This document shows, one piece after another, positions 1-14,491 of a stretch of 14,491 bases of DNA (position 1 is the stretch's first letter; the number at the start of each line of letters is the position of its first letter). The stretch is from a virus (taxonomy: Duplodnaviria > Heunggongvirae > Uroviricota > Caudoviricetes). The notes beneath the pieces were generated by a model. The model saw only the letters and a list, made by a program, of their open reading frames with translations, made no database searches and was not told the origin of the DNA. The stretch lies in the IMG/VR virus record IMGVR_UViG_2579778989_000010; one strand, written 5' to 3'. The position numbers were made by a program, and so were the translations under genes.

Positions 1-738
1 TCATTCACTCTCTTTCAAACCAGTTTTAACTGTTTGTGGTTTTGGGTAAGGCTGGACTTTGAATAGCTTTGTGTTAAGGCGTTTTCTGGCTCTCTTGTCC
101 AGAAACCGGATGTAACGAAACTGACGGAATTTATGAACACTGGCTCTGTCGATATTAGCCCGCAGATGTTCACCTCGCTGTCCTCCTCGTTTGATTGCAT
201 TCTTGCAAATCTCGTGATACCACTCGCCATCAAGTTCATAGAATGTTGTTTCATGACTGCCTACATAATCAAAATTGCTTGCCTGGTACACGACACCAAG
301 ACAGCCACAACGCTCATCTGCAAACGACTGAACCCACTGCACCTGCGGATAAAGTTGTCTGATTAGTTTGAGCGCGTAACTGATTGCCCTTGATTCGGAG
401 TTTCTCGGCATACAGTCATGCAGCCATAACCGGTTAAGCTCCATATATTCGCGGTTCTGCGTGCCAGTTACGACGCGTGCACCATTGTTTGGATTAAGGG
501 CATAACCCCATTGCATTACGCCAACCAGCTCCCGTTCTGAAAATATGCCCAGATGAAGGTAGGAATTATTTACGAAACGATGGCTGTAATGTTTATTGAC
601 GACGACCAGCCGGGCCAGCCAGCAACTTATTGTCTCAACCCGTAACTCACGGGAGCCATAACCGACGATATTGTCGTTATAGTGAATAAGTTCAGGCGTG
701 CTGATGATACGGGATGTAACTTGCTTTCTGTTCCCCAC
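1..738 (-). CDS. mom: Mom-like DNA modification protein; start uncertain (GTG at 738-736 is one candidate, ORF frame is open up to 933)
   Basis: Long ORF in the other frame overlapping the 3' end of a clear com homologue, as in Mu com-mom; the ~230-245 aa portion downstream of the com stop fits Mom size. Identification is by context rather than recognised Mom motifs. Confidence 0.55.
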
Positions 739-892
739 GACAGGATTTCCTTGTGTATGTGGGGTGCTCTGTGGCGCTCTGAGATGTGATTTGATTGAGG
801 GTTTTACAGCGCGGACATTTAACTTCCAGATAACTGAAGCTGGCTCGTGCCAGTAGCTTGTTACAATGTCGGCACCGTATGTTTCGATACAT
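692..892 (-). CDS. com: Com zinc-finger translational activator of mom
   Basis: Translation [35 protein letters not shown] has the CxxC...CxxC finger and close similarity to Mu Com (IRCKNCNKLL...EIRCPRCK); GGAGG Shine-Dalgarno about 8-10 nt upstream of the ATG at 892; the ORF track's longer form from 937 lacks an RBS. Confidence 0.75.
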
Positions 893-937
893 GGCCGCAT
901 AACCTCCTGCTTTGTTGTTGATATCTTTATCACTCAA

Positions 938-1030
938 TCGATCGACAAAAACGATCGATTTGATTTATTTAATTGATACAACAAATAACACGAAATGTCA
1001 TTAGCGAAAATTTATGAGTTTGATCACTAA
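938..1030. promoter_or_regulatory. AT-rich region upstream of com with three GATC (Dam) sites, two inside a repeated ATCGATCG palindrome; candidate mom/com regulatory region
   Basis: GATC at 940-943, 953-956 and 1022-1025; in Mu, Dam methylation of GATC sites upstream of mom controls repressor binding. No confident -35/-10 pair found. Confidence 0.3.
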
Positions 1031-1148
1031 TTTTAAACGGTGCTGTAACGCATAAGTGCTGAATGATTGTACATTTGAATACCGCAAAGCAAACAAATCA
1101 ACTAATTTATAGAAGTCAATTGGTTAATTGCCAGCGTAAGAGGCTGCT

Positions 1149-1442
1149 ATGGACAATCATGTAACGACGAGAAATCGAAAAATGATTGAAAATGCGGAAA
1201 TCTATAATGATTATTTTTCCGATTATTCAGATGCCTGCAAATACAGTTCGAGTGCGGGAGAGTTCATATGCTTCAACTTTTTTATTAAATCTTATGTTTT
1301 TCCTCCACTGCAAGAAGATGGAGGTGTGCCACCTCCTGAAATCACTTTGCACCGTATAGCCTCCGTCTCAATGATGGAGCAACAGGCTAATGAGCTGTAT
1401 AGCATTCTGGGAACGATTCTACAAAAGCGTGAATCGGACTAA
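1149..1442 (+). CDS. hypothetical protein (97 aa), AT-rich, divergent from com
   Basis: ATG preceded by AAGAGG Shine-Dalgarno about 6 nt upstream; followed by two hairpins; no recognisable domain. Confidence 0.5.
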   Translation: MDNHVTTRNRKMIENAEIYNDYFSDYSDACKYSSSAGEFICFNFFIKSYVFPPLQEDGGVPPPEITLHRIASVSMMEQQANELYSILGTILQKRESD

Positions 1443-1523
1443 TGATACCGGTTCATTTGCCTGCCCGGATGGGGAAGCAGGATTGACTGCTCCATAAGCA
1501 GCTATATTTCTGAATACGAAATA

Positions 1524-1552
1524 CTATCCAGCGATTACATATGGCTGGATAG
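1524..1552. repeat. perfect 9-bp inverted repeat CTATCCAGC-(11 nt)-GCTGGATAG
   Basis: Read directly from sequence; lies between convergent genes; could be an RNA hairpin or a protein-binding palindrome. Confidence 0.5.
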
Positions 1553-1577
1553 CGGCAAAGATGTTTTCATTAGTGTC

Positions 1578-1610
1578 AAACCGGCAGAGGACACCACCGG
1601 TTTGTATTGT
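1578..1610 (+). terminator. hairpin AAACCGG-(12 nt)-CCGGTTT followed by GTATTGT; weak candidate terminator between convergent genes
   Basis: 7-bp stem with a partly T-rich 3' flank on the plus strand; lies 3' of both 1149..1442(+) and 1610..1864(-). Confidence 0.3.
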
Positions 1611-1864
1611 TACATCATGGTACTGTCAGTTCCGGGCTGAGCCGGGTCTGGTTGCTCTGGCTGCGCGTCGGTTTTCGGCTCATTATCAGCATCACTGGCC
1701 GCAACTGCTGGCCCAATAAGTTTTGCCAGCACTTCATCAACGTAAGTGTCGATTTGTGCCTCAAAATCCTTGCGGACCTGCGCTTTCAGCAACTTATTTA
1801 CTTCACCGGAATACAGTGCCTGTTTTACCAGGTCTTCAGTGACGGTGCCTTTAATTTCTGGCAT
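1610..1864 (-). CDS. hypothetical small acidic protein (84 aa)
   Basis: ATG preceded by strong AAGGAGG Shine-Dalgarno; C-terminal half is Asp/Glu/Pro/Gln-rich; no recognisable domain. Confidence 0.55.
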   Translation of the reverse strand: MPEIKGTVTEDLVKQALYSGEVNKLLKAQVRKDFEAQIDTYVDEVLAKLIGPAVAASDADNEPKTDAQPEQPDPAQPGTDSTMM

Positions 1865-1899
1865 GTATATCCTCCTTATGCGGGAATAAAGCCCTGCAA

Positions 1900-2082
1900 T
1901 CAGGGCTGGGTCGGGTCTTTTGGGAGCGGAGTTACCTGCGCTGTTTTACTGAGTTTTTCAGCTGCTGCGTCCTCAATTTTGCGGCGAACATAATTTCTGA
2001 TGGCCTTATAACCACCACTCACCAGATATAACGCACATACTGCCGTGCAGAAATACAATAAAATAAGCTGTAAAAATGTCAT
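1900..2082 (-). CDS. small membrane protein (60 aa): one N-terminal hydrophobic helix and a charged C-terminal tail
   Basis: ATG at 2082 preceded by GGGAGG Shine-Dalgarno about 5 nt upstream (the ORF track's start at 2094 has no RBS); MTFLQLILLYFCTAVCALYLVSGGY is a predicted transmembrane segment. Confidence 0.45.
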   Translation of the reverse strand: MTFLQLILLYFCTAVCALYLVSGGYKAIRNYVRRKIEDAAAEKLSKTAQVTPLPKDPTQP

Positions 2083-2178
2083 TATCCCTCCCAATTATTG
2101 ACATGGTGTTGACACCGGTAATATCTGTTAGGTAAAAAGGTGCACTGCATTTTTTGCTTTGGATATAACGATCTTTTT

Positions 2179-2220
2179 GCCGCCGGTTTCTTGTTTTCCC
2201 TTACCGGCGGCATTTTTTTA
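2179..2220 (+). terminator. intrinsic terminator, plus-strand specific: GCCGCCGGT-(15 nt)-ACCGGCGGC followed by ATTTTTTTA
   Basis: 9-bp GC-rich stem plus a 7-T run on the plus strand; the minus-strand RNA has A's 3' of the stem, so it should not terminate the esterase transcript. Confidence 0.5.
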
Positions 2221-2226
2221 TCCTGC

Positions 2227-4281
2227 TTACGCGTTATTCACTTCCACCACGATACTGTCAATCAGTACCGGGTAAGTCGCATTTTTAGTGATATCGGTCA
2301 CGCGCAACTTGTCTGCCGTAAACGTGCCGACCGGAGACTGCGACAGCATGAATGGTGTCCCGTCCTTACCATCAATGACCGGCGTCACCTCAATACTGTT
2401 GTTACCGGCAAAACGGAAGCCCAGCGTATGCCATTCGTTATTAAATGCGCCGAATGACCCCAGCTTCGTGTTCTGCGCCGTGTTTCCTTTGTGATACATC
2501 ACGTTAAGGTCTGTGGCATCGCTCTGTACGTAGAACGATGCCAGCAGGTTATGACCGGCATTTCCTTCCAGAGTAACCCCTTGCGGCAGGGCAGAAACCG
2601 GCCAGTACAGCGCCAGTGCGTACTGATTAGCCGTAAGCGCGCCATCGAGTTTAAAACGACAACTGACAAGACCACCTTTACCCAGCAGGTCCGCACCATT
2701 ACCAGCATCATGCTCAAGGTACCAGGGGGCTCTTCCTGTTTCCTTGGTCAGTTTCATTGCCTTACCCCCGCTGGCTCCGGCATCATCCACGATTTGAGCC
2801 TTGCCACCTCCGGCAGCCCAACCCTGTGGTGTCAACCGTCCTTCAGACTCAGATGCCCGGTAAGCAAATAGCGTACTCATCGTCGTGGTGTCTGCGGGTG
2901 GCGTGGACGGTTTTGATGGTGTATCAGGTGACGGCTTCTCATCCGGTGGTGTCACGGTCTGCCCGCGCATCAGTTCAGCCGTGCGCCCTGCATGGAGCAT
3001 AATAGCTGAGGCCAGACGGTCTGAAATGACGCCCCTGCGTGCCCATGAGCTGAAATGGCTGTCACGCTGTGTCGAAACAAAACTGCCCTGGGTTCGGGAT
3101 GCTGCACCGTAATACCCGACAGCCACAATATCCGGGTCTTCCGCCGGAGCATTCGTTGGCGTGCTCTGTCCATTCTCATCCGTCAGGAACGGTACAAAGA
3201 AAATTTTCTGTGCTTCCTTGCCTTTGTAGCCACCGTATACTGCCTCATATTTATCGGTGCCAGCGTTTTTCCAGTAATACGTGGTATCACCGCAAATCCA
3301 CGGCACCGTGGTGGCATTTCCACTCACGCACTGCGCAGCAAGCGGAGCCAGGTCAGTTCTGAACTGCTGAACCATGGCCGTGAATAAACTATTATGCTGC
3401 TGGCTTCCTGAGGCAAGGTCTGCCTCTCCCTGCATCCAGACCACAGCCAGAAGTTTGTTTTTCGGGTTTTTCGCCAGCGCGACTTTGGTGCGGCTTACCA
3501 GGTCCTGATACAGAGGTTTACCGGCCCCCCAGCGTGAAGAATCAGCGGAAGCACCGCTGGCCTCACTGAATGAGCCGTCGGCTCCAGTGGTGAATGCTGA
3601 CCCGCCACGACAACAGGGCACCAGAAGTATCCCGGCATTCTGTGGGATATAGGGAAGCAGTTTTTTGGCAATATGCAACCCCTGACCGACAGTCCCGTAC
3701 TGGCCTTTTGCCAGATCAGCTTTCGGGTGGTTTATCCCGCTCATATCCTGAACATCATGCAGGCAGTGGTCTGCCGGAATGATGTCGTTGTATGTACACG
3801 ACGTACCGTTGGGCGTTACCGTACTGCGGCGTGCCAGTTGCTTAATGCGTGGGTCCGGGCGGTCAAACGAATCCGGTAACGGCAGCCCCTCGCCGTAGGC
3901 CATGCCATTTGACTGACCCGCGAGAATGACAACAAAGTAATATTCCGGCTCTGAACTGCTGCCATTCGTGCTACCGGAAGGCCCGGCGTTATCCGGTGCA
4001 TTCCAGTCGGAGGGCGTGAGCGTTCCGGCCACGTCAGATGTGATTGGAATGATGCCAGTCACGCCTGAACTGGTGATTTCTGCACTGGGATTACCGGATA
4101 CCGGCATTACCCATAATGGCTCTTTCGTGCTGAAGCGGATCACGCAGTCTGCGAAGGTGATCCCCCCTTTATTACCCGAAGGGCGGAAAGGGCTTTCAAT
4201 AAATGCCACCGTGCCACCGGCAACCTTGACTGAAAACTCTCCGGGCATGGCGGAGAGCATTTTCCACTTGGAGTCTGACAT
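2227..4281 (-). CDS. SASA/SGNH-family esterase (sialate O-acetylesterase-like; architecture resembles prophage NanS-p), 684 aa
   Basis: SGNH/SASA-like motifs in order: ILAGQSNGMAYG (block I GQSN), VWMQGEAD, RDSHFSSW (candidate DxxH block); N-terminal ~100 aa and C-terminal ~250 aa extra domains; Shine-Dalgarno is weak. Confidence 0.65.
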   Translation of the reverse strand: MSDSKWKMLSAMPGEFSVKVAGGTVAFIESPFRPSGNKGGITFADCVIRFSTKEPLWVMPVSGNPSAEITSSGVTGIIPITSDVAGTLTPSDWNAPDNAGPSGSTNGSSSEPEYYFVVILAGQSNGMAYGEGLPLPDSFDRPDPRIKQLARRSTVTPNGTSCTYNDIIPADHCLHDVQDMSGINHPKADLAKGQYGTVGQGLHIAKKLLPYIPQNAGILLVPCCRGGSAFTTGADGSFSEASGASADSSRWGAGKPLYQDLVSRTKVALAKNPKNKLLAVVWMQGEADLASGSQQHNSLFTAMVQQFRTDLAPLAAQCVSGNATTVPWICGDTTYYWKNAGTDKYEAVYGGYKGKEAQKIFFVPFLTDENGQSTPTNAPAEDPDIVAVGYYGAASRTQGSFVSTQRDSHFSSWARRGVISDRLASAIMLHAGRTAELMRGQTVTPPDEKPSPDTPSKPSTPPADTTTMSTLFAYRASESEGRLTPQGWAAGGGKAQIVDDAGASGGKAMKLTKETGRAPWYLEHDAGNGADLLGKGGLVSCRFKLDGALTANQYALALYWPVSALPQGVTLEGNAGHNLLASFYVQSDATDLNVMYHKGNTAQNTKLGSFGAFNNEWHTLGFRFAGNNSIEVTPVIDGKDGTPFMLSQSPVGTFTADKLRVTDITKNATYPVLIDSIVVEVNNA

Positions 4282-4366
4282 CGTCTTTTCTGCCTGTTTC
4301 TGAATTAAACAGAGTCAGAATAGCGACCGCTGAAAAATATGTGTTTTGCGGAAATTCAAAAAAGCG

Positions 4367-4939
4367 TCACGGTACTTTTGGTGACGGAGCTGGTGAGGCA
4401 GGAAAATAACGATAAAGGGTGGAAAGGCCAATATCAAATATCAGTGCGATTTGTTTACGGGACTCGCCATTAGCCAGCAAACGGGCGATTTGCTCCCGCT
4501 CTTTCTCTGTCAGTTTCTGAGGTCTGCCGCCATGACGCCCCTGAGCACGGGCAGCAGCAAGACCCGCGCGTGTACGTTCAATAATGAGTTCCCGCTCCAT
4601 TTCCGCCAGCGCGCCCATTATATGGAAAAAGAAACGTCCCATGGGAGTGGATGTATCAATATTGTCCGTAATGCTGCGGAAGTTAACGCCGCGTTGCCGG
4701 AGTTCTTCTGTTAAAAGGACAAGGTGCTGCATACTGCGTCCAAGGCGATCCAGTTTCCAGACCAGCAGGGTATCCCCTGGCCGGAGTCGCTTTAATGCGC
4801 GTTTAAGTCCGGGACGCTCCCTTGTCTTACCGCTTATTCTGTCTTCGAAAAACAGCTCACATCCTGCACATTCCAGCGCATTTCTTTGTAGCGCCGTATT
4901 CTGGTCATTTGTTGACACCCTGATATACCCAATCAGCAT
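4367..4939 (-). CDS. gin: Gin/Pin-family serine DNA invertase
   Basis: MLIGYIRVSTNDQNTALQRNAL...VWKLDRLGRSM...MGRFFFHIMGALAEMERELIIERT is near-identical in pattern to Mu Gin / e14 Pin (catalytic Ser in RVST); AAGGAA Shine-Dalgarno and a TATAAT-like hexamer upstream. Confidence 0.9.
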   Translation of the reverse strand: MLIGYIRVSTNDQNTALQRNALECAGCELFFEDRISGKTRERPGLKRALKRLRPGDTLLVWKLDRLGRSMQHLVLLTEELRQRGVNFRSITDNIDTSTPMGRFFFHIMGALAEMERELIIERTRAGLAAARAQGRHGGRPQKLTEKEREQIARLLANGESRKQIALIFDIGLSTLYRYFPASPAPSPKVP

Positions 4940-5004
4940 ACGATTTCCTTATTATAAAAAGCCGGAATTGTCGCATGAGGAATAAAACAGAGTTAATCCT
5001 GGCT

Positions 5005-5030
5005 TTCCTGAAAACCTCGGTTTACGGGAA
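5005..5030. other. gix-like recombination (crossover) site for Gin
   Basis: TTCCTGAAAACCTCGGTTTACGGGAA is an imperfect palindrome whose AAAACCTCGGTTTAC core matches the Mu gix/hix core as I recall it; sits between gin and the S' segment as in Mu. Confidence 0.6.
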
Positions 5031-5378
5031 ACGGTAAACAGGGCGGCGAATGCTCTGCCATCGGACGGCACCGCCGTTGCCGCGAATAGACTCGCCACCC
5101 CAAGAAATATTAATGGGGTTCCCTTTGACGGGACGCAGGACATAAACATCACTTCTGGTATAACACAGCAGGATGCGGATTCCCGATATATCCAGGATAT
5201 CAGGCTGGGAGCAGAGAACAGGCAGGTAATGTACGGTGGGGCATATTACTCTGCGTACGGTAATGTTATGGCAGGCCTGCAGATTGACAGTAAAGTTGAT
5301 GCTTCAAACGATTTTATAGCATTCAGACCCCTGCAAAAATTAGTCGGAGGTACATGGATTACGGTATCTCAGTTATAA
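5031..5378 (+). CDS. tail-fibre variable C-terminal segment (S'-like), start-less; expressible only when fused to a constant S part by inversion
   Basis: Frame is open from just upstream of gix to TAA at 5376-5378 with no upstream start; translation ...AANALPSDGTAVAANRLATPRNINGVPFDGTQDINITSG... resembles tail-fibre repeat regions; followed by a tail-fibre assembly gene. Confidence 0.5.
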   Translation, partial: TVNRAANALPSDGTAVAANRLATPRNINGVPFDGTQDINITSGITQQDADSRYIQDIRLGAENRQVMYGGAYYSAYGNVMAGLQIDSKVDASNDFIAFRPLQKLVGGTWITVSQL

Positions 5379-5429
5379 ATAGTCAGTAAATAATATATTT
5401 TAAAACAGATTTATTTCCAGGAGGATTTT

Positions 5430-5951
5430 ATGGAACTAAAAAATATAACCCGTTATTATCCTGAAAATATGCCATATGGTAATAATGTTCAGTATTTCCA
5501 GAGTGAAGATGGTAAGGATTTCTACGAATCCCTGCCATTATTCACCAAAAAATATAAACTTTGCATAACACCTGACAGCGGCGTTATCTGCTCAATATCA
5601 CAGGACGCCTCGGCGCTGTATCCTGCGGGGTTTTCTGTGGTTGAGGTCGATGAACTCCCTGAAGGCACGGATATTTCAGGAAACTGGAAGTTTGATAATG
5701 GCATAATCTCCCGTATTCCGGTTAACTACGCAAGAAAACTGGAAGCAATGCGCCAGTCATATCTTAATCAGGCATATGAAAAAATTAATGACTGGAGAAC
5801 GGAGCTACAACTGGGCACCATCAGCGATGAAGACAGAGCAGCACTTACCCAATGGATGGCATACATCAGTCAGGTGAAGAAAATGGAACTACCCGCCATT
5901 AAAACAGAAGCTGAATTTAACGCCATTAAATGGCCTGAGCAGCCACAGTAA
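5430..5951 (+). CDS. tail fibre assembly protein (U'/Tfa family)
   Basis: AGGAGG Shine-Dalgarno; 173 aa; LGTISDEDRAALTQWMAYISQVKKM... ending WPEQPQ resembles Mu U/U' and other tail fibre assembly proteins. Confidence 0.8.
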   Translation: MELKNITRYYPENMPYGNNVQYFQSEDGKDFYESLPLFTKKYKLCITPDSGVICSISQDASALYPAGFSVVEVDELPEGTDISGNWKFDNGIISRIPVNYARKLEAMRQSYLNQAYEKINDWRTELQLGTISDEDRAALTQWMAYISQVKKMELPAIKTEAEFNAIKWPEQPQ

Positions 5952-5955
5952 TAAA

Positions 5956-5973
5956 GAAGGCCGGAAGGCCTTC
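5956..5973. terminator. short hairpin GAAGGCC-GGAA-GGCCTTC immediately 3' of U'
   Basis: 7-bp stem read from sequence; no strong T-tract, so terminator function is uncertain. Confidence 0.3.
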
Positions 5974-5982
5974 TGAATATCA

Positions 5983-6231
5983 TTATATACTTGCAGCCGT
6001 CACCCATGCTTCATTTAACAGATACTGCAACGGCCGGTAATACACGCCGCCGACGTTATCTGCCGTATTCTTACCGACATCCTGTACTTTAATTCCGGTA
6101 AGAACATTGCCGCCCCCCAGATTCAGATCCCAGCTTTCCCATGTTCCGGGCATATGTGCGGTCACCGACCCCAGTCTTATGGCGGTTAATGGCGTTTTCC
6201 CCGCCATCAGCGATAAAGCCCTGCCGGTGCA
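5983..6231 (-). pseudogene. start-less open frame of unknown origin, possibly a C-terminal remnant of a late (tail-fibre-related) gene left at the deletion junction
   Basis: Frame open for 82 codons from a stop at 6232-6234 with no upstream partner; overlaps the gemA-like ORF's 3' end in another frame; Gly/Asn/Val-rich like fibre C-termini. Weak. Confidence 0.25.
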
Positions 6232-6481
6232 TCACTTTCCAGATGGCGCGAATTTTGGCGGTCACCGTCCCCGGTTTTAAGGCCCGGTTAACCGGCTTCT
6301 GACGCACTTTAAAACCGCGTTTTTTGAAAACATCCAGCACGCGGGATAACTCATCCGGTGACATATCCCGGCAACTGGGTTTGCCGGTGGCTGCCAGTAG
6401 TACGGATGTGTAGGTCTCATGGTCAAGCTGTAGATCGCGTTTTGCGACATGTATTAAGGTAATCAGGGAAGCGCGATTCAT
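6089..6481 (-). CDS. gemA: GemA/gp16-like early protein (DUF1018-like); C-terminus probably altered by the deletion junction
   Basis: MNRASLITLIHVAKRDLQLD...GKPSCRDMS...KIRAIWKVMHRQGFIADGGENAIN matches the Mu-like gp16 pattern as I recall it; the last ~25 residues lose the expected pattern; GGAGA Shine-Dalgarno. Confidence 0.5.
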   Translation of the reverse strand: MNRASLITLIHVAKRDLQLDHETYTSVLLAATGKPSCRDMSPDELSRVLDVFKKRGFKVRQKPVNRALKPGTVTAKIRAIWKVMHRQGFIADGGENAINRHKTGVGDRTYARNMGKLGSESGGRQCSYRN

Positions 6482-6545
6482 TATCGTGTCTCCGTAACAA
6501 CAGGCGGCATGGCAACGCCGCCCGGATAAAACTAAAGGTATCGAT

Positions 6546-6956
6546 ATGAAAATAGATTACGATGAAGTATTAAGTATTCTCACAACTTTTCAGGATGCTG
6601 AAACACCTTTCCTTACACTACAGGATCTGGGCATGGCTGAGGCAGAAGGAGAGGAAAAGGATAAAAAAGTTTTTCATCTTATGCTTCTCGCTGATAATGG
6701 CTCAATTGTTAATGGTGATATGCAGTCAGAAACACCCAAATATATTGGTTTCTTTTTCCATTCTCTGGGCGTTGGTTTCAGAAACACGCCCATTATGCTT
6801 ACCCAGCAGGGGCATGATTTAGCTAACGCCCTGAGAAAAAAACCAATCCTTGAAAGAATCAAAAAGGAGTTTACAGACGCACCATTTGATCTAATTAAAG
6901 AAGTTACCAAATCAATGTTAACCAGGTTCGTCAAAGAACGTATTGGGATTGACTGA
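6546..6956 (+). CDS. hypothetical protein (136 aa), AT-rich, opposite strand to the early operon
   Basis: ATG with AAAGG Shine-Dalgarno; visibly more AT-rich than flanking genes; divergent from the gemA-like gene; 3' end overlaps the convergent gene 6918..7226 by 39 bp. Confidence 0.5.
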   Translation: MKIDYDEVLSILTTFQDAETPFLTLQDLGMAEAEGEEKDKKVFHLMLLADNGSIVNGDMQSETPKYIGFFFHSLGVGFRNTPIMLTQQGHDLANALRKKPILERIKKEFTDAPFDLIKEVTKSMLTRFVKERIGID

Positions 6957-7226
6957 ACAACTTAATTCAGCCAGTAATCGCAGGGCGGCGACAGCCGCCT
7001 GCTTGTCACTTCTTTTAGCTATTTCCGCAAGAGTATGCACAATCCATAACGGACTTAACGCCACGGCTGAATCCAGAATCATGTCATCCATAATAATTTC
7101 TGGCATATCCCGCTTGTCACATTCTTTATCCATAAAAGAAACGAATTTCTCTGCATCTTCCGGTTTCATGCCTCCGGCGATAAGGATTTTGCGATATTCA
7201 TAAGACGATCTTAATTCAATACTCAT
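6918..7226 (-). CDS. hypothetical protein (102 aa)
   Basis: ATG with AGGTGA Shine-Dalgarno 5 nt upstream, immediately after the TAA of the preceding gene. Confidence 0.5.
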   Translation of the reverse strand: MSIELRSSYEYRKILIAGGMKPEDAEKFVSFMDKECDKRDMPEIIMDDMILDSAVALSPLWIVHTLAEIAKRSDKQAAVAALRLLAELSCSVNPNTFFDEPG

Positions 7227-7241
7227 TATTCACCTGCCTGC

Positions 7242-7592
7242 TTAATCTGTTTCCAGTGCTTTGCTACGGGCTATAGCCTCACATTCAAAAAATACCGACT
7301 CCGGCACGCGCTCTTTTAATTCACGAACAAGGAAATCATTAACGCGTTCATGACGTCTTATATTTCTTTCCTTTTCCTCCTGGCGCAATACAGCAAGGCG
7401 GTATTCAACAGCCCGGCGTTGTTTCTGAAAGACAGCCAGTGCTTTTCTGGCAGCATTACGCCATGCATCATCGCCACATGGTGCGTATTCAAGCTGAAAT
7501 TTAATCTCTTCAATAGTTTCTTTGATTTTTGCCAGCAAGCTAAGACAGTCGCTTATTGTCTCCAGCTTTTCATTATCAATATAACTTCTCAC
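7242..7592 (-). CDS. hypothetical early protein (116 aa from GTG; charged, probably helical)
   Basis: GTG at 7592-7590 overlaps the upstream TGA (GTGA coupling); the ORF track's longer form from 7634 overlaps the upstream gene by 46 bp. Confidence 0.45.
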   Translation of the reverse strand: MRSYIDNEKLETISDCLSLLAKIKETIEEIKFQLEYAPCGDDAWRNAARKALAVFQKQRRAVEYRLAVLRQEEKERNIRRHERVNDFLVRELKERVPESVFFECEAIARSKALETD

Positions 7593-7918
7593 GCATTCAC
7601 CTCCCGTAATTCCGGTAAAGCCGAAATATGACACCAGTGCGTCACCTGTCCGTCTTCATCTTCAAGGCAGGCTCCGGTTTCTTCATCAACAAAAAAGCCT
7701 TCATACCCCATATGGCCGATGCGCAGCTCCTGACGGTGACCATACTGAACAATCAGCACGACAGCCTCCATATCAGGTGGGAAAGCATCATTCAGTGAAT
7801 GCCAGGGATAACCGCGTAAATCCCCGAAATAAACACCGGTCAGCGTTCCGCCACAGAGCGGCATTCCGGCGGCACACACAAGAGGTTCATCTGATTCAAC
7901 AAATAAGGTCGTTATCAT
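7589..7918 (-). CDS. hypothetical early protein (109 aa)
   Basis: ATG overlaps the upstream stop as ATGA; same strand and tight packing as the rest of the operon. Confidence 0.5.
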   Translation of the reverse strand: MITTLFVESDEPLVCAAGMPLCGGTLTGVYFGDLRGYPWHSLNDAFPPDMEAVVLIVQYGHRQELRIGHMGYEGFFVDEETGACLEDEDGQVTHWCHISALPELREVNA

Positions 7919-8466
7919 GGCGTTAACTCCCGTAATACAGCGTCCTCGGCAGTCCGGCGACGGTAATAAACTGCGTGAGCAGAATGTTCAGATATTCCAA
8001 ACTTTTCGCCAATTTCCCGGAATGACAGACGGCGTGGGTAATCGGAATCACGCAGCGCACGTATAAGACGTACATCATCATCAGATATGCGCGTGCCGGG
8101 GCGTAACTCTCCGCACTTTGTTAATCCAGCACCAATCATTCCTGCCCGACATCTGACAGAATCTTTATTACGTCCGAGATATTCTCCCATTTGCTGGCAG
8201 GTCATTGTTCTGGCATTTTTTCGAATAAACTTATCTTCATCAGGTGTAAATCTTGGGTGTTTATATTTCAGTAACTCCGGGTATGAACTGCGCAATACAC
8301 CAGTCCGGTTATATACAGCCCAGACAGTTCTTTTTATTCTGGCAGCAATATCCTTAACCGGGGTGGATGAATAAAGCGCAATCAGTAGCGCATCTTCTTC
8401 AGGTGTCCACGCGCGGACATGAGCGGGTGTACGACCTTTTCGCCCCATGTGTTGTAAAATCATCAT
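7915..8466 (-). CDS. putative DNA-binding protein with two Myb/SANT-like repeats and a C-terminal helix-turn-helix-like segment (183 aa)
   Basis: Repeats WTPEEDALLIALY...VWAVYNR and RFTPDEDKFIRKN...; C-terminal RLSFREIGEKFGISEHSAHAVYYRR; GGGGGTGA Shine-Dalgarno. Confidence 0.5.
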   Translation of the reverse strand: MMILQHMGRKGRTPAHVRAWTPEEDALLIALYSSTPVKDIAARIKRTVWAVYNRTGVLRSSYPELLKYKHPRFTPDEDKFIRKNARTMTCQQMGEYLGRNKDSVRCRAGMIGAGLTKCGELRPGTRISDDDVRLIRALRDSDYPRRLSFREIGEKFGISEHSAHAVYYRRRTAEDAVLRELTP

Positions 8467-8469
8467 ACA

Positions 8470-8985
8470 TCACCCCCTGACTCGCTTTTCGGCAGCATAA
8501 AACTCATCAGACAGAATTTCGGTCATTTTCCGTTTTGCGGAATCATCTTCGCACTGAAGATAAATCACATTGTCAACGCAGAACCAGTTCACGGGACCAT
8601 ACAATATTGCTGAGAAGTCAATACCCAGCCAGAACAACAGGGCATCGGTTCTGGCATACGTGACGGGCGAATATTCACGCCACAGACTGTTCAGTTCATC
8701 AGAGGCAACACGCAGGGCTTTAGGGATACGTGATGTGCGCGGTGTGCAGCTCCAGCCATTCGACGCAGTCGGTTTTCGCCATAAGTCGCGATGAAAAGGA
8801 TATTTGTCCTCCGTAAAACGCAGTCCCTTAAAACAAAAACCACTGATACTGAATTCAAATACCGACCGGCACGCAACATTCAGCACGGCCTCAAGGCGTT
8901 TCGCCTCATCTTTTACCGTCTGGCAGTCCTGCTGGTATTTTTGCCACGCAGCCAGCGCGGAAGGGTTTGATGTTTTAAAGAACAT
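8470..8985 (-). CDS. hypothetical early protein (171 aa)
   Basis: ATG overlaps the upstream TAA (TAATG); GGAGGTG Shine-Dalgarno. Confidence 0.5.
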   Translation of the reverse strand: MFFKTSNPSALAAWQKYQQDCQTVKDEAKRLEAVLNVACRSVFEFSISGFCFKGLRFTEDKYPFHRDLWRKPTASNGWSCTPRTSRIPKALRVASDELNSLWREYSPVTYARTDALLFWLGIDFSAILYGPVNWFCVDNVIYLQCEDDSAKRKMTEILSDEFYAAEKRVRG

Positions 8986-9518
8986 TACGCCACCTCCGCA
9001 GATATCCCGGCAGGCGCTGCTGTCCGGTCAACAATCAGGTAGCGCAGAACACGCGCGGTGATATTCCAGCCGCTTAAACCGCAGATGATGACACCCAGGC
9101 GAATGTCGATATACGCCATCACAAACTGGGGCACGCCTTCTTTCATGGCCTGCTCATCAACTTCAGCCACCACATAAACGGTTTCACAGGTCAGAACGCC
9201 CTGAGCAAATTCCCACGCCATCGACGGAATATCATGCCCCTCAATCCATGGCAGGGATTTTCTGAAGCTGCACCACTGAACATCATCAGCCGCAGATTCC
9301 TGTCTGCATTTGCGACGAATCGGCTGCACCGGGCGGGGACGCGGAATATCATAAAAACCGTTACATTCCGTCAGCACCCCGGCATCAACCGCATCACGCA
9401 GAAAATAAACCATGGAGGATGGCGGCATATTCATTTTTTCAGCCAGTACGCCGCAGGTCAGACGCCCGTAAATACTCAGCCAGTTTTTAACCCCTTCAAG
9501 CACTTTTGCATCAATCAT
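8985..9518 (-). CDS. hypothetical early protein (177 aa)
   Basis: ATG with GGAGGA Shine-Dalgarno; co-oriented and tightly packed. Confidence 0.5.
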   Translation of the reverse strand: MIDAKVLEGVKNWLSIYGRLTCGVLAEKMNMPPSSMVYFLRDAVDAGVLTECNGFYDIPRPRPVQPIRRKCRQESAADDVQWCSFRKSLPWIEGHDIPSMAWEFAQGVLTCETVYVVAEVDEQAMKEGVPQFVMAYIDIRLGVIICGLSGWNITARVLRYLIVDRTAAPAGISAEVA

Positions 9519-9521
9519 GAA

Positions 9522-10064
9522 TTATTCCTCCGTCAGCGCCACATATTCAGAATGTTTAATTTCCTGGCATTCTTCAGGAATACATCCGTTTATTTCCCTG
9601 CCATAAGCGCCCACTTTAAACACCACGCACAGGGCATCACGGGAGAACGAAGGGGTCCACCAGGAGTCCGTGTTAAACATGGAGGGGATTCTCATTACCC
9701 CCAGCTTTTCACAGAGCCAGACAAGGAAATCAGGACGCTTTCTTAACTCGCGTTCAGCGGCTTCAATCATTGCGGCAATCGCCGGTCCTTCAGGGCATGA
9801 CTCATCAGGTCTGGCTATAAAGCACTGTCCGCCACCGATAAAAGCCACATCATCGCGCTTACGCCAGCCCGCAGGCAGAGCACCGGCAAAATAAAACTCA
9901 CTGATTCTGTCCATGGCGAACGGCTTTAAGCGCAATCCGGCAGCGCCTGTATTTTTCAGTAATGTCCGAAGAATACTGTTGCGTAGCGGTAAAACAGCCT
10001 GTTGATATTTGGTGAAATATTTATTTGTCTGCACACGGTCTAATTTGAAATAAAAATATGCCAT
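9522..10064 (-). CDS. hypothetical early protein (180 aa)
   Basis: ATG with AAGGAA Shine-Dalgarno; preceded by an AT-rich ~100 bp spacer after gam. Confidence 0.5.
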   Translation of the reverse strand: MAYFYFKLDRVQTNKYFTKYQQAVLPLRNSILRTLLKNTGAAGLRLKPFAMDRISEFYFAGALPAGWRKRDDVAFIGGGQCFIARPDESCPEGPAIAAMIEAAERELRKRPDFLVWLCEKLGVMRIPSMFNTDSWWTPSFSRDALCVVFKVGAYGREINGCIPEECQEIKHSEYVALTEE

Positions 10065-10161
10065 ATTTCCGATTCCTTATTTTCAGCTTTCAGGCGCAAG
10101 CAGTCCCCTGACGCGAGCGCCATAATTAAAATGAAGTGATATTTAAATAATTAATGCGGTG

Positions 10162-10692
10162 TTATTTATTCAGTCCGGCATCCTGTTCAAAAGGCTCGAC
10201 ATAAAAACTTTCAGCGCCTTTATTCACCTTTATACCGGCAATGCCTTTCACCGCATCCGGCTCCGCCAGGACGGCTTCCTTGTTCACTTCCTCTTTCGTG
10301 CGGATGAATCGCTCAAGCCCCATACGGCGCAGCGTGTCAATCACACCTTCCACATCACGGCTGACGCTGCATGATGGCGTTCCCAGCCGCCATGACACCG
10401 TTCCGGTGGTCAGATTGGCAGTTTTGGTTTTGCCGCCGTTCGTCAGCTCATCACGGTTGGTTTTACACCAGTCCTGAATCCCTTTAAAAAGCACTTTGAT
10501 TTGCTTTTTAAGATTTTCAATCTGCGGCGTATAACGGGCGGTGATTTCTGCCACTTCATCATTCATCGCCGTTTCCAGGCGCAGCGCCTCTCGCTGAATA
10601 TCGCCCAGGGTGCGGATATCGCGGCTGACTTCTTCGCGGGTCTGCGGTGCGGCCTCGGCTACAGCCTTTAATTTTGTAACGCGTTTTGCCAT
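10162..10692 (-). CDS. gam: Gam host-nuclease inhibitor (Mu Gam / Ku-like DNA end-binding protein)
   Basis: RLETAMNDEVAEIT and NRDELTNGGKTKTANLTTGTVSWR...LERFIRTKEEVNKEA closely match my recollection of Mu Gam; 176 aa; AAGGA Shine-Dalgarno. Confidence 0.8.
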   Translation of the reverse strand: MAKRVTKLKAVAEAAPQTREEVSRDIRTLGDIQREALRLETAMNDEVAEITARYTPQIENLKKQIKVLFKGIQDWCKTNRDELTNGGKTKTANLTTGTVSWRLGTPSCSVSRDVEGVIDTLRRMGLERFIRTKEEVNKEAVLAEPDAVKGIAGIKVNKGAESFYVEPFEQDAGLNK

Positions 10693-10703
10693 TTTGTTTT
10701 TCC

Positions 10704-10997
10704 TTATTGCAATGTATCTGGTGCGTTCTGCAAGGAGCGGCGCTCAATGCTGCTTTTCACCCCCAGAGCCTGCATGGAACCCTGAAGTTCATCTGTCAGA
10801 AACTGAATAATTGTGGGGCTGTGATATTTAAGAATTTGCGCATAAACATCACATGGGCCTGTCGGTCTGTTCTCCGTATCACGTTCGATTTTTACAGTGG
10901 CAGTAACCCCCTCCGTGATTTCCTGACTATCATTACCGGCTGGCTTTACTTCATGCATTACGTGGTTAAATTCAAAAATAACGCGTACTTTGCTCAT
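10704..10997 (-). CDS. hypothetical early protein (97 aa from the internal ATG); N-terminal motif shared with the upstream gene
   Basis: ATG at 10997 has AGGGG Shine-Dalgarno; begins MSKVRVIFEFNHVMHEVK, paralleling MSKVVHIIFEYKEHVIHK of the neighbour. Confidence 0.45.
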   Translation of the reverse strand: MSKVRVIFEFNHVMHEVKPAGNDSQEITEGVTATVKIERDTENRPTGPCDVYAQILKYHSPTIIQFLTDELQGSMQALGVKSSIERRSLQNAPDTLQ

Positions 10998-11001
10998 GGA
11001 A

Positions 11002-11274
11002 TTACCCCTGCTGATTAAATTCATTACCGTTAATAACCCCGGAAGCCATGCCCCTGTCTTTCATGAATGCACTGGCTTTCATTGCCACAAGCTCTGCGAA
11101 GTTTCTGCTTTCCGCGAGCATAACCACCCCAAAAATCATGGCGGGGCCATCACCTTTCTGCTTTATCCCCGTTGAACGTATGTCCAGACTTACCCCCATG
11201 CGCACTGTTCCATCAGCGTTTTTATGGATAACGTGCTCCTTATATTCGAAAATAATGTGTACGACTTTACTCAT
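11002..11274 (-). CDS. hypothetical early protein (90 aa); N-terminal motif shared with the downstream gene
   Basis: ATG overlaps the upstream stop (ATGA); similar first ~18 residues to the downstream gene. Confidence 0.45.
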   Translation of the reverse strand: MSKVVHIIFEYKEHVIHKNADGTVRMGVSLDIRSTGIKQKGDGPAMIFGVVMLAESRNFAELVAMKASAFMKDRGMASGVINGNEFNQQG

Positions 11275-11552
11275 CCTCTGGTCCTCGTTCTGTTTGGATA
11301 ACTGACCCGGCGTCTGACCTCACGGCAGAACCGAATCATGGCATTAAAGGCTTCTTCCTCCGTCACCGCTTCCGGTATCCCCGGAACCAGTAACTGCTCC
11401 TGTTCATCACGTCCATGACGCGCCATAACCTCAATCACATGCCGTACCGTGGCAGGCTTTCCGGCAACTATCGGCAATGCACCTTCCGGCAGGACGTAAC
11501 CAAACTCAATAAGACCACTCGACCACGCCCATGCAATGAGATTTTTTTTCAC
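11271..11552 (-). CDS. hypothetical early protein (93 aa), GTG start
   Basis: GTG at 11552 preceded by GGGAGGTG Shine-Dalgarno; adjacent to the upstream stop. Confidence 0.45.
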   Translation of the reverse strand: MKKNLIAWAWSSGLIEFGYVLPEGALPIVAGKPATVRHVIEVMARHGRDEQEQLLVPGIPEAVTEEEAFNAMIRFCREVRRRVSYPNRTRTRG

Positions 11553-11553
11553 C

Positions 11554-11820
11554 TCACACCTCCCAGTAAACCGTGCAGCCGCTGATGCGGGTGGCCTTCA
11601 CACGGCGGCGCAGGCCGTTGGTCTGTATGGTGATTTCAATTTCACCGGTTCCCTGCACGTTGCCTACCGGCGGCGTGGTTTTCAGTGCAAAACGTTGCGG
11701 ATAGCGCTTACTGCGTTCCAGTACCGCACCGGCAAGTTCGGTCAGACGGCGCGCGCTGTTCAGGGAGTCGAATAAATTCATTTTGTTACCGCAGGATTGC
11801 ATATTCATATAACACCTCAT
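11554..11820 (-). CDS. hypothetical early protein (84-88 aa; start at 11820 or at the internal ATG 11808, which has an AGGTG Shine-Dalgarno)
   Basis: ORF directly follows the kil-like gene; start choice ambiguous. Confidence 0.4.
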   Translation of the reverse strand: MRCYMNMQSCGNKMNLFDSLNSARRLTELAGAVLERSKRYPQRFALKTTPPVGNVQGTGEIEITIQTNGLRRRVKATRISGCTVYWEV

Positions 11821-12042
11821 TTAGCTGACTTGTTTCGCACCAACAGAACGGCATATTCCGCTGTAAACTTCTGTCGCACCTTCGCGATCAAGTCCGGCAG
11901 ATATCACCATTCGTGTGCGGTCATTAAATTCAAAAAGTAAATCGCCACATTCTTTATTTTCGGCCAGTGAAATCACCTTCACGTTATCGAAATTAACCAG
12001 GTAAAAGCGTCCGTAAATATCAGGAATATTAAATACCGCCAT
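11821..12042 (-). CDS. kil: Kil-like small early protein (73 aa)
   Basis: Position immediately downstream of B with overlap of the B stop, as for Mu kil; size ~74 aa; ATG 12042 has AGGTG Shine-Dalgarno. Identity by position and size only. Confidence 0.4.
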   Translation of the reverse strand: MAVFNIPDIYGRFYLVNFDNVKVISLAENKECGDLLFEFNDRTRMVISAGLDREGATEVYSGICRSVGAKQVS

Positions 12043-12044
12043 AA

Positions 12045-12977
12045 TCACACCTGTGAGAGTAATTCAGGGTTGGTATAAACCTCTTTAAAGGCCGCATTAA
12101 TATGTTTTTCTGTCAGCGCCGCGCCTTCACCGCTGGCGGTGAGCCACGCCTGGTTAAGCGTATGTGTCAGAACGCGTAACGCTCCCGGCTTTTCAGCGAT
12201 AGCCTGCATGACGGCCAGCTCGGCCTCACCACTGATCCCCCACGCCATGGCAATGGCCAGCACATCCGCCTTTTTGGCCTTGCGAAGTTGTTTTGTACGG
12301 GCAAGACGGCTGAACAGGCGCGATAAATCATCAAAGGCGCGGCGTCCACCTTTAAACAATCCGCGCGGGTTACCAATAAGCACCATCCCGATCCCCGTGG
12401 CGTCCTGAATTGCCCGGAGTTGCTCCAGACCGTCAATACCAAGATGATCCGCCTCATCCACAATCACCAGTCCACGCGTTCCCATCAGGCGACGGCGGAT
12501 GGCGCGGGATAATGCCCCTTTGTTCGCGCGGGTGTAATCAATCCCCAGCGCATCGGCCAGCTCCAGCAGACACTCCGTGACGCTGGAGTGCGCGGGTGAC
12601 AGGGTGATCATCCAGGTGTTTGGTTGCTCCTGGCAGTAATTACGGGCAGTGGCCGTTTTACCCACACCCGGTACGCCCACAATAACGTTAATACAGCCCA
12701 TCAGGCGAACCGCCTGAAACAGTGCGCGCAGCTCCTGGACTGTCTGAGTTTCCACAAACTGCGGCGGTTCCGGCAGTGCGCTTTGTTTATTCCAGTTCTC
12801 ATACCAGGAGCGCAGGGAAGCAGCCACAGCAGCGTTATCGCCTTTATATTTTCCCTTACGGAAAGCCGATAATGTGCCGTCGGAAATTCCCGCCTCTCTG
12901 GCGATGGCATACTGCGTCAGTACGCCGCCATCAATAAGTTCATCAATGGTCTTGATTACATCGTTAATATCGGTCAT
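12045..12977 (-). CDS. B: MuB-like AAA+ ATPase (transposition target-DNA activator) with N-terminal HTH
   Basis: Walker A GVPGVGKT, VIVDEADHLG (Walker B), KPGALRVL, and N-terminal GISDGTLSAFRKGKYKGDN all parallel Mu B; ~310 aa versus 312 in Mu; GAGGTGA Shine-Dalgarno before ATG 12977. Confidence 0.85.
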   Translation of the reverse strand: MTDINDVIKTIDELIDGGVLTQYAIAREAGISDGTLSAFRKGKYKGDNAAVAASLRSWYENWNKQSALPEPPQFVETQTVQELRALFQAVRLMGCINVIVGVPGVGKTATARNYCQEQPNTWMITLSPAHSSVTECLLELADALGIDYTRANKGALSRAIRRRLMGTRGLVIVDEADHLGIDGLEQLRAIQDATGIGMVLIGNPRGLFKGGRRAFDDLSRLFSRLARTKQLRKAKKADVLAIAMAWGISGEAELAVMQAIAEKPGALRVLTHTLNQAWLTASGEGAALTEKHINAAFKEVYTNPELLSQV

Positions 12978-13059
12978 ATTATTCACCTCGCTTGAGACAG
13001 CATTCTCCGAGACTGAAACCTCAAATAACCTGAGTCACCCCTCGGGTTATTTTTTTATT

Positions 13060-14491
13060 TCAGGCCAGCGGATCACTTTCTTTTAATTTCGCTTCGAGCA
13101 ACTGCAATCCCCGCTGGAAATTACGCTCGTATTCTTCATCAGGTTCATCGTCAGCGACCGGTTGCTGAACGGTCACCGTATTACCCACAGGGCGGTATAT
13201 GTTTTCCAGCCAGGGCTCCTGCGGCTTGTGCTCCAGCACGTTGACAACCTCATCCTCGGCATCACGGATTTTTTCCTCTGCGCGTTTACGCATGCCTTTA
13301 AGGCGCTGCTGCTGTTTGTAGTATTCCGCGCTGACAGGGAAGGCTTCGCGTTTATTGCCGTCCCATATCCGAGTAATACAGAAACGGTTTGCCATGATGG
13401 CGAATACCGTGCTGTATGGCACCGGCTACGGCGAAAACATTTTCAGCCAGGTCAAGGCTCCAGCCCACCACAAAGCGCGTGCCACCGTCGATAACAAAGG
13501 TCACTTCCGGTGCGAATGGCCGCCCGTGAACCGGGTGCGCGCATTTCAGCTTCATGCCGTGACCGTCACCAATCCAGACATAATTCACCGGCATTCTGGA
13601 CCAGTCGCGGCGCGTGAATCCCTCAAGCTGACGGTATTCACTGCCAGTTACCCGGCCTTTTTGTTTCACCACTTCCGGCAGTTTCTTCATTGCGCGGCGA
13701 ATGGTGTCATAAGAGGGCATGATATCGAGCATATAAGGCTCATCAGCGTGCCGGTGCTGCCATTCAGCAACAAAATCCTCGTAAGCCTCGGTCATTGGTC
13801 GGCCGTTTGACTGGCGATACTGCGCCAGAAATTCGGGCAGCCAGTTAATATCTTCGGCTTTTATTTCCTGGCGTTTACCCGGTGCCAGTAAAAGCAGGCG
13901 TTCAGCGGCGTTCTGTGCCTTGTTAAAGGCCGCAATCCAGCGTTTCAGCGTGATTTCACTCAACGCGCGGCTGTTTCCCTTTTTGGCGTTCGCCGTCTCA
14001 ACCATTGCCACAATGCGCTCGTCCAGTTGTGATCGTGCCAGGCTGTTAACGAGGAACCGGATAGCCTTAGCGCAACTAAAGCCGGGTTGTTGCGCGATTT
14101 TCAGCACCTCGCTGACGATCGCTATTCGTGCCTCTGCCACTTTACGTTGGTTTTCAGTCAGGGCATTGAGGCGTTCGACCATCAGTTGGGGTGATCCGCG
14201 ATATGCCTCCACCGCATCAACCACGGCAGGTGAGCGTCTGGCCTTTGTCACCACCGGAGCCGGTGATTCATCGGCTTTTTGCGTCATCAGTTGCAGGGCG
14301 TAGCGTTCACGTAATGCCTGCTGCGTCACTTCAGGTAAACAGTCGATGCTGTATTCAGTTGCTTTAGAGCCTGAGCGACGACGGGAACAACAGCTTTTCC
14401 CTTGTACGTAACGTTGTAATGCCTGGCGAATACCTTTTGTTGTAGCAGGCATTCCGGGCGCGCCAATCAGTTCTTTTGCAATGACATACAT
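13060..14491 (-). pseudogene. A: MuA-like DDE transposase, 5' end at or beyond the window edge, disrupted by an internal deletion and frame change near 13340-13430
   Basis: N-terminal 379-aa frame aligns with MuA from the N-terminal DNA-binding region through the first two catalytic Asp regions (NYVWIGDGHG..., FLYYSDMGRQ) and then hits a stop at 13352; a second frame (13060..13422) encodes the MuA C-terminus (EYYKQQQRLK..., PVGNT..., DDEPDEEYE). About 200 residues including the catalytic Glu are absent. Confidence 0.7.

Follow-up and report, generated by a model that had tools for sequence, protein, structure and literature searches.

The DNA analysed here, hereafter the window, is a stretch of 14,491 bp bounded by the stop codon of mom (position 1) and the start codon of the transposase gene A (position 14491). 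These limits follow from the collinearity of window 1-14491 with positions 16481-1991 of L007, a locus containing the full element, which measures 15.8 kb. On sequence grounds, the window is assigned to a Mu-like (Sp18-type) transposable prophage of Escherichia coli. Pfam searches recovered the expected Mu-like markers, i.e., genes for a MuA-type transposase (truncated) and a MuB ATPase at the left end of the prophage, the early markers Gam, Kil, and GemA, and com-mom at the right end. Table 1 follows the early operon, which is encoded on the minus strand, downward from position 14491. Eight co-oriented open reading frames had been counted between gam and the gemA-like gene in an earlier reading made from the sequence alone; the number is seven, plus one gene of the DUF2513 family on the opposite strand. 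The latter gene is kept in some relatives (the prophages of strains JKHS016 and 102651), and other small open reading frames are found instead in those of TOE17 and DLI.5a.

Table 1. Features of the window, read along the early operon and on to the mom end.
Feature	Position	Strand	Evidence or remark
Transposase gene A (broken), then B	from 14491 downward; A frames 13352-14491 and 13060-13422	-	A: Pfam HTH_Tnp_Mu_1 in window frame; B: Pfam AAA_22 and Phage-MuB_C
Second, separate deletion junction, in A	13366-13367	.	local alignments; Pfam of intact versus window A
Kil-family gene and small frames	after B	-	Pfam Kil_protein
gam	10162-10692	-	Pfam Phage_Mu_Gam
Seven co-oriented frames	between gam and GemA gene	-	include Gp11_C, Gp12 (Pfam Phage_Mu_Gp12), and a Myb/HTH protein
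DUF2513 gene	6546-6956	+	inside early operon, just upstream of GemA gene
GemA (gp16) fusion frame, 130 aa	6089-6481	-	translations; Pfam GemA
Deletion junction, 7-bp microhomology GCGGTTA	6182-6188	.	three-way alignment; BLAST end points 6188 and 6182
S 3' remnant, last 67 codons and stop of variable part Sv	5983-6188	-	no start codon or promoter of its own
GC-rich hairpin, 8-bp stem	5955-5974		terminator-like on minus strand; between convergent S and tail-fibre assembly genes
Tail-fibre assembly gene (U'-like), intact, silent orientation	5430-5951	+	Pfam Caudo_TAP, E=4.8e-19
S'v, alternative tail-fibre C-terminal cassette	5031-5378	+	promoterless and without N-terminus, as in intact relatives
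gin-proximal gix site TTCCTGAAAACCTCGGTTTACGGGAA	5005-5030	.	outer end of the relatives' 86-nt inverted repeat
gin-like serine invertase gene, 190 aa, intact	4367-4939	-	Pfam Resolvase, E=1.6e-51, and HTH_7
SASA carbohydrate-esterase domain and DUF6645 protein, 684 aa	2227-4281	-	between gin and com-mom
com, mom	left end of window		Pfam Zn_ribbon_Com, Mom

Near-identical prophages allow the end of the early operon to be mapped to the nucleotide. By BLAST, window 1638-6188 matches the gin/G-segment/S 3' end of the JKHS016 prophage at 99.98% identity, and window 6182-13371 matches the early region of the same prophage, from inside gp16/GemA, at 99.96%. The match to the tail-fibre gene S (3' end) breaks off at 6188 and that to gp16/GemA at 6182, with codon 226/227 of S and codon 100/101 of gp16/GemA as the end points. 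The seven shared bases, GCGGTTA, occur once at the join and once at either parental break point, the one in gp16/GemA and the one in S; if extended, the microhomology covers 9 of 10 positions, GCGGTTA[A/C]TG. Three-way alignment found no filler bases, and the join has the form of an illegitimate deletion, in which a short direct repeat is present at both break points, one copy is left, and nothing is inserted. In JKHS016, 15,456 bp separate the two joined stretches; in the intact 102651 prophage, the distance is 23,030 bp. As window positions 6188 and 6182 map to positions 7787 and 30811 of the latter prophage (L005), 23,030 bp are missing from the window.

The 102651 prophage (NZ_CP189662.1 3696965-3736500), a complete relative of about 39 kb, shows what was lost. 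After gp16, it carries a Mor-family gene, lysozyme and spanin-like genes, and a TraR/DksA-family gene, followed by DUF2730, Gp27, a 554-aa protein, a DUF935 portal, and a minor head protein. Next come a virion morphogenesis protein, a protease, and the major head protein; then sheath, tube, and tape measure; and finally DNA circularisation and baseplate proteins, S, and the G segment. The missing stretch takes in GemA codons 101-170, the Mor/C-type activator gene, and every lysis, head, tail, and baseplate gene, as well as S codons 1-226 with the left gix site. A feature annotated as ‘tRNA-OTHER’ also lies inside this region in the intact relative, between the virion morphogenesis and minor head protein genes (L005 22563-22650).

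The lysis, head, and tail genes and the Mor/C activator are absent from both the window and the full element and present in the intact relative; therefore, the element is a defective member of the Mu-like prophages. No window reading frame matched Pfam Mor at E<=1, and a tblastn search with the relative's Mor/C protein against the window and the full element with its flanks gave a best E of 0.25. The negative result is valid because the same protein scores E=6.7e-31 against Pfam Mor. The sequence-only reading had anticipated much of this: it placed a deletion junction within 5956-6235, described the whole late module as absent, found no Mor- or C-like gene, and called the prophage defective, without virion genes or a C activator, and the alignments and searches bear it out on each of these points. 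Its assumption that mor and then C should follow the gemA-like gene did not hold. The intact relative has one Mor/C homologue, located directly after gp16 as in other intact relatives, and the nearest counterpart of this protein is Mu C (E=2e-27; 39.7% identity across 97% of the homologue); thus, the family has one C-like activator rather than mor plus C. The position of this gene also disposes of the idea that intact relatives might naturally lack mor/C here.

On the early side of the junction, residues 1-100 of the fusion protein are native GemA, and residues 101-130 result from an out-of-frame read through the S remnant. The Pfam GemA match is confined to residues 19-100 (profile positions 1-87 of 119, E=4.7e-18), in agreement with the earlier observation that the gemA-like frame loses its family pattern near its 3' end. 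On the other side, the translation of 5983-6188 equals, apart from one substitution, the C-terminal end of JKHS016 S, a protein of 293 aa; the suggestion that the 5983-6231 frame might match the C-terminus of a tail-fibre protein was therefore sound, the match being the last 67 codons of S. A U' stop and a hairpin had been reported soon after the gemA-like gene. Both exist, with the tail-fibre assembly gene ending at 5951 and the hairpin directly beyond it, but the S remnant that lies between them and the gemA-like gene had been missed. Terminator scanning and folding gave the hairpin an energy of -17.7 kcal/mol (z=-3.15).

The remainder of the join partner is an invertible G segment. In intact relatives, an 86-nt inverted repeat (93% identity) has one arm beside gin and the other inside S, and its outer ends are 26-bp gix-like sites, TTCCTGAAAACCTCGGTTTACGGGAA beside gin and TTATCGATAACGTCGGTTTACGGGAA in S. 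The site in the window resembles the 26-bp Mu/hix type. In the DLI.5a prophage, the segment is flipped, with an inversion boundary at window 5001-5140, within the gix repeat, and S'v is fused to the constant part of S (Sc), followed by the tail-fibre assembly gene; therefore, the switch works in this family. The relatives' annotation names the assembly gene WP_000421093.1 (tail fiber assembly protein) and their S'v equivalent ‘phage tail protein, missing N-terminus’. The G segment of this family (window 5005-6188; L003, the JKHS016 prophage, 3368-4710; L004, the DLI.5a prophage, 7950-9400) has one tail-fibre assembly gene, paired with S'v. In the orientation seen in the window, Sv has no assembly gene downstream, in contrast to the symmetrical Sv-U / U'-S'v layout of Mu.

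The deletion removed the left gix site and 133 bp of the G interior, leaving about 88% of the G DNA (1184 of about 1343 bp). Hence, the earlier description of an early operon fused to the right half of G was correct as to a fusion into the interior of G and wrong as to the extent retained. Codons 1 to about 160 of S, which make up the constant part, are gone together with the promoter; S'v is whole, and Sv is reduced to its last 67 codons. The 4.55-kb stretch holding gin has a single mismatch to JKHS016, located in the S remnant. The window contains a single gix site: no second one was found in it at up to three mismatches, and no long inverted repeat of the kind seen in intact relatives was found. 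One candidate for a second gix core, AAACCGCGTTTT at 6312-6323, lies in gp16 and was rejected as a chance match (at least two matches in 33 of 200 shuffles). Since inversion requires more than a single gix site, what is left of G is presumably locked despite the intact Gin, and its tail-fibre cassettes would be silent. The orientation is identical in all nine loci of the deleted lineage.

A second lesion, overlooked in the sequence-only reading, affects transposase A. There, 659 bp are lost, with a frameshift after about residue 375 and removal of about residues 376-594, and the Mu-transpos_C domain (residues 533-593 of intact A) falls in the removed region. Because this frameshifting deletion took away the C-terminal half of A, the element is unable to transpose by itself. 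Every contig of the lineage that extends far enough has this lesion, with an identical junction. A 9-bp microhomology that BLAST indicated at this deletion was discarded; gap-free local alignment gives a 2-bp overlap (TA).

The ends of this phage family read 5'-TGTAACCAGGTGAATCA ... CGCCGCGCTATA-3', and in L007 they lie at 764-768 and 16610-16613. The canonical target duplication of Mu is 5 bp, a length that fits none of the four independent insertions for which the flanks were compared (L007, the JMF1 prophage, and the DLI.5a and 102651 prophages). These are instead flanked by direct repeats of 4 bp (TGTC, GTAT, GTAC, and CCCC), and the joined flanks of the element exceed the empty ppnP-aroM site by 4 bp. 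The relatives occupy different loci, which fits transposition.

The distribution of the junction was examined in several collections. Megablast of the window against 5,426 complete E. coli genomes found many prophages that align solely to 6182-14491. A 511-bp query centred on the junction was never spanned by one place in these genomes; its left pieces end at window 6188-6191, and its right pieces begin at 6182. The junction thus occurs in 0 of the 5,426 genomes, and the ppnP-aroM site is empty in 5,424 of them. Exact-pattern scans found no junction in one-genome-per-species contigs or in JGI metagenome contigs. Conversely, the exact 130-aa fusion protein is present in 56 index blocks of a public assembly collection. 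From this index, 24 contigs were examined and eight places fetched, of which two came from NCBI isolate assemblies, three from Logan assemblies of SRA runs, and three from ENA metagenome assemblies (one carrying a human gut label). An identical 71-bp junction was found in nine fetched loci, eight of which are independent assemblies (different sources and assemblers), and each locus has 0-7 substitutions relative to the window. An 11,145-bp IMG/VR contig, collinear with window 1-11145 with two mismatches, was not counted as independent, as it may come from the same genome or lineage as the window.

All junction loci that reach host DNA lie between ppnP and aroM, and no copies were found at other genomic sites. 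None of the junction-bearing contigs has late genes within the element. With the exact join in at least eight independent assemblies, the possibility, raised in the sequence-only reading, that late genes might lie elsewhere in the same prophage with a different join is not borne out. Taken together, the sequences indicate one deletion event, inherited within a lineage that has no complete genome in the collection.

The favoured reading, to which a probability of roughly 93% is assigned, is that the junction is the scar of a single 23,030-bp internal deletion, after which the Mu-like remnant was vertically inherited and continued to decay. In this scenario, an Sp18-type prophage would have inserted between ppnP and aroM in an E. 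coli lineage and would later have lost the whole stretch from gp16/GemA to S at once. Since GCGGTTA is found at both parental sites and kept once, the most likely mechanism appears to be RecA-independent, microhomology-mediated illegitimate recombination, through either replication slippage or end joining. This proposal draws on the 7-bp microhomology and on the absence of IS and gix sequences at the join; by a simple estimate, about 5 in 10,000 random joins would have an overlap of at least 7 bp. It is also possible that the 23 kb were lost in more than one step, as JKHS016, the closest relative, has undergone rearrangement of its own late region.

Several consequences can be drawn for the remnant. 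Virion production is impossible, with the sole Mor/C activator and all lysis, head, tail, and baseplate genes gone. In Mu, transcription of mom requires C. By analogy, C-dependent late promoters, presumably including that of com-mom, would be left without an activator. The early operon would now end in the frame made of GemA(1-100) and 30 foreign residues, and the early transcript probably terminates at the old S terminator hairpin. The remnant is passed on vertically as a fixed, decaying prophage.

Relatives of the window show that loss of late genes is not confined to this lineage. In JMF1 (L001 9861-10784), IS903B adjoins S; in TOE17 (L002 13647-13826), head genes are lost; in DLI.5a (L004 9863-10318), DUF2730 is joined to a tail gene, a lysis-to-tail join; and in JKHS016 (L003 5227-14738), the head-tail block is inverted and truncated. 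All four retain the early region and the gin-to-mom end. With four different lesions, late-region decay is therefore frequent in this family. The same pattern could point to a domesticated mini-Mu-like element, possibly selected or mobilisable by a helper, from which costly lethal late functions were purged. Both ends of the element are intact and flanked by a direct repeat; the repressor, B, kil, gam, gin, the SASA/DUF6645 esterase, and com-mom are retained; the genes kept left of the junction match a relative's exactly; and the lineage is common in public data, as the index blocks attest. If this explanation were true, Sp18-type prophages would repeatedly and independently shed the late region and keep the two end modules, either for a benefit to the host (e.g., superinfection exclusion or surface modification) or because an intact sibling prophage moves them. 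However, all host-reaching copies occupy the same chromosomal site, with no sign of mobilisation; transposase A is frameshifted; and mom and the tail-fibre cassettes lack activator and promoter. Furthermore, the recent date of the deletion (<0.05% divergence from relatives) makes conservation uninformative on selection. Domestication is thus considered unlikely.

Specialised recombination is a still less probable source of the join. The adjacent intact gin might have acted on a pseudo-gix site, an IS element might have been involved, as the IS903B-associated deletion of JMF1 in the same general region could suggest, or the Mu transposase might have carried out intramolecular transposition. For Gin, however, the S-side break point lies 133 bp inside gix-L, and the gp16-side sequence is unlike gix; for an IS element, no IS sequence or added bases are present at the join; and transposase-mediated deletions involve a Mu end, which neither side of the junction is. 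An assembly collapse or chimera, in which the late region is still present in the genome and two repeats were joined by the assembler, has some appeal given the 7-bp overlap and the several related Mu-like prophages in many E. coli (TOE17 has nine matching places), but 7 bp is far too short to collapse an assembly, and this explanation is effectively ruled out because the exact 71-bp junction recurs in eight independent assemblies, in the ppnP/aroM context wherever a contig reaches host DNA and with no late genes in the element.

Defective prophages arising from internal deletion are commonplace, and the present case is ordinary prophage decay that matters little beyond annotation. The defective prophage pool of O157 Sakai offers the basis for comparison with cryptic prophages (PMC2669165): there, too, morphogenesis and regulatory genes are deleted, some accessory genes are kept, and inheritance is vertical at a fixed site. 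Unlike those of the Sakai pool, the element in the window is Mu-like rather than lambdoid, and its scar can be resolved to the single base by comparison with near-identical intact sequence. For annotation, the 15.8-kb element should be recorded as a defective Mu-like prophage remnant that lacks both the activator and the virion genes and has a broken transposase and a locked G segment, and the GemA-like frame should be labelled a fusion artefact. The exact junction, CCCCAGTCTTATGGCGGTTAATGGCGTTTTCCCC, can conveniently serve to recognise the carrier E. coli lineage as a clone, and the locus documents probable microhomology-mediated prophage decay cleanly and at nucleotide resolution. A literature search turned up no account of this remnant.

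The closest known systems are the Sp18-type prophages, and the occurrence of the window's relatives in O157, O103, and O121 genomes suggests that they are of this type. Sp18 of O157:H7 Sakai is a predicted intact, Mu-like prophage whose invertible host-specificity region has genes unlike those of Mu (PMC2669165). With Sp18 and the 102651 prophage, the window's element shares, in the same order and at 94-99.9% identity, the repressor, the ner-like HTH gene, A, B, kil, gam, Gp11/Gp12, and GemA, as well as, beyond GemA, the G segment, gin, DUF6645, com, and mom. It differs from them in lacking the 23,030 bp from the C-like activator through S codon 226 and the 659 bp of A. The phage collection contained no close complete relative, just Mu-like inserts in two Stx phages with 92-93% identity over the early region.

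Phage Mu itself (NC_000929) has the same transposable-phage layout, with GemA, Gam, MuB, com-mom, and a Gin whose tail-fibre switch is flanked by gix sites, but it has almost no nucleotide similarity to the window. Where Mu has mor and C, the window's family has one Mor/C gene; where Mu has U and U', the family has one tail-fibre assembly gene in G; and the flanking direct repeat is apparently 4 bp in the family versus 5 bp in Mu. Further, the window carries cargo between gin and com that is missing from Mu, namely the SASA/DUF6645 gene followed by DUF1378 and DUF826 genes. Part of the SASA/DUF6645 gene (3425-3924) has 76% identity to DNA of P2/P88-type E. coli phages.
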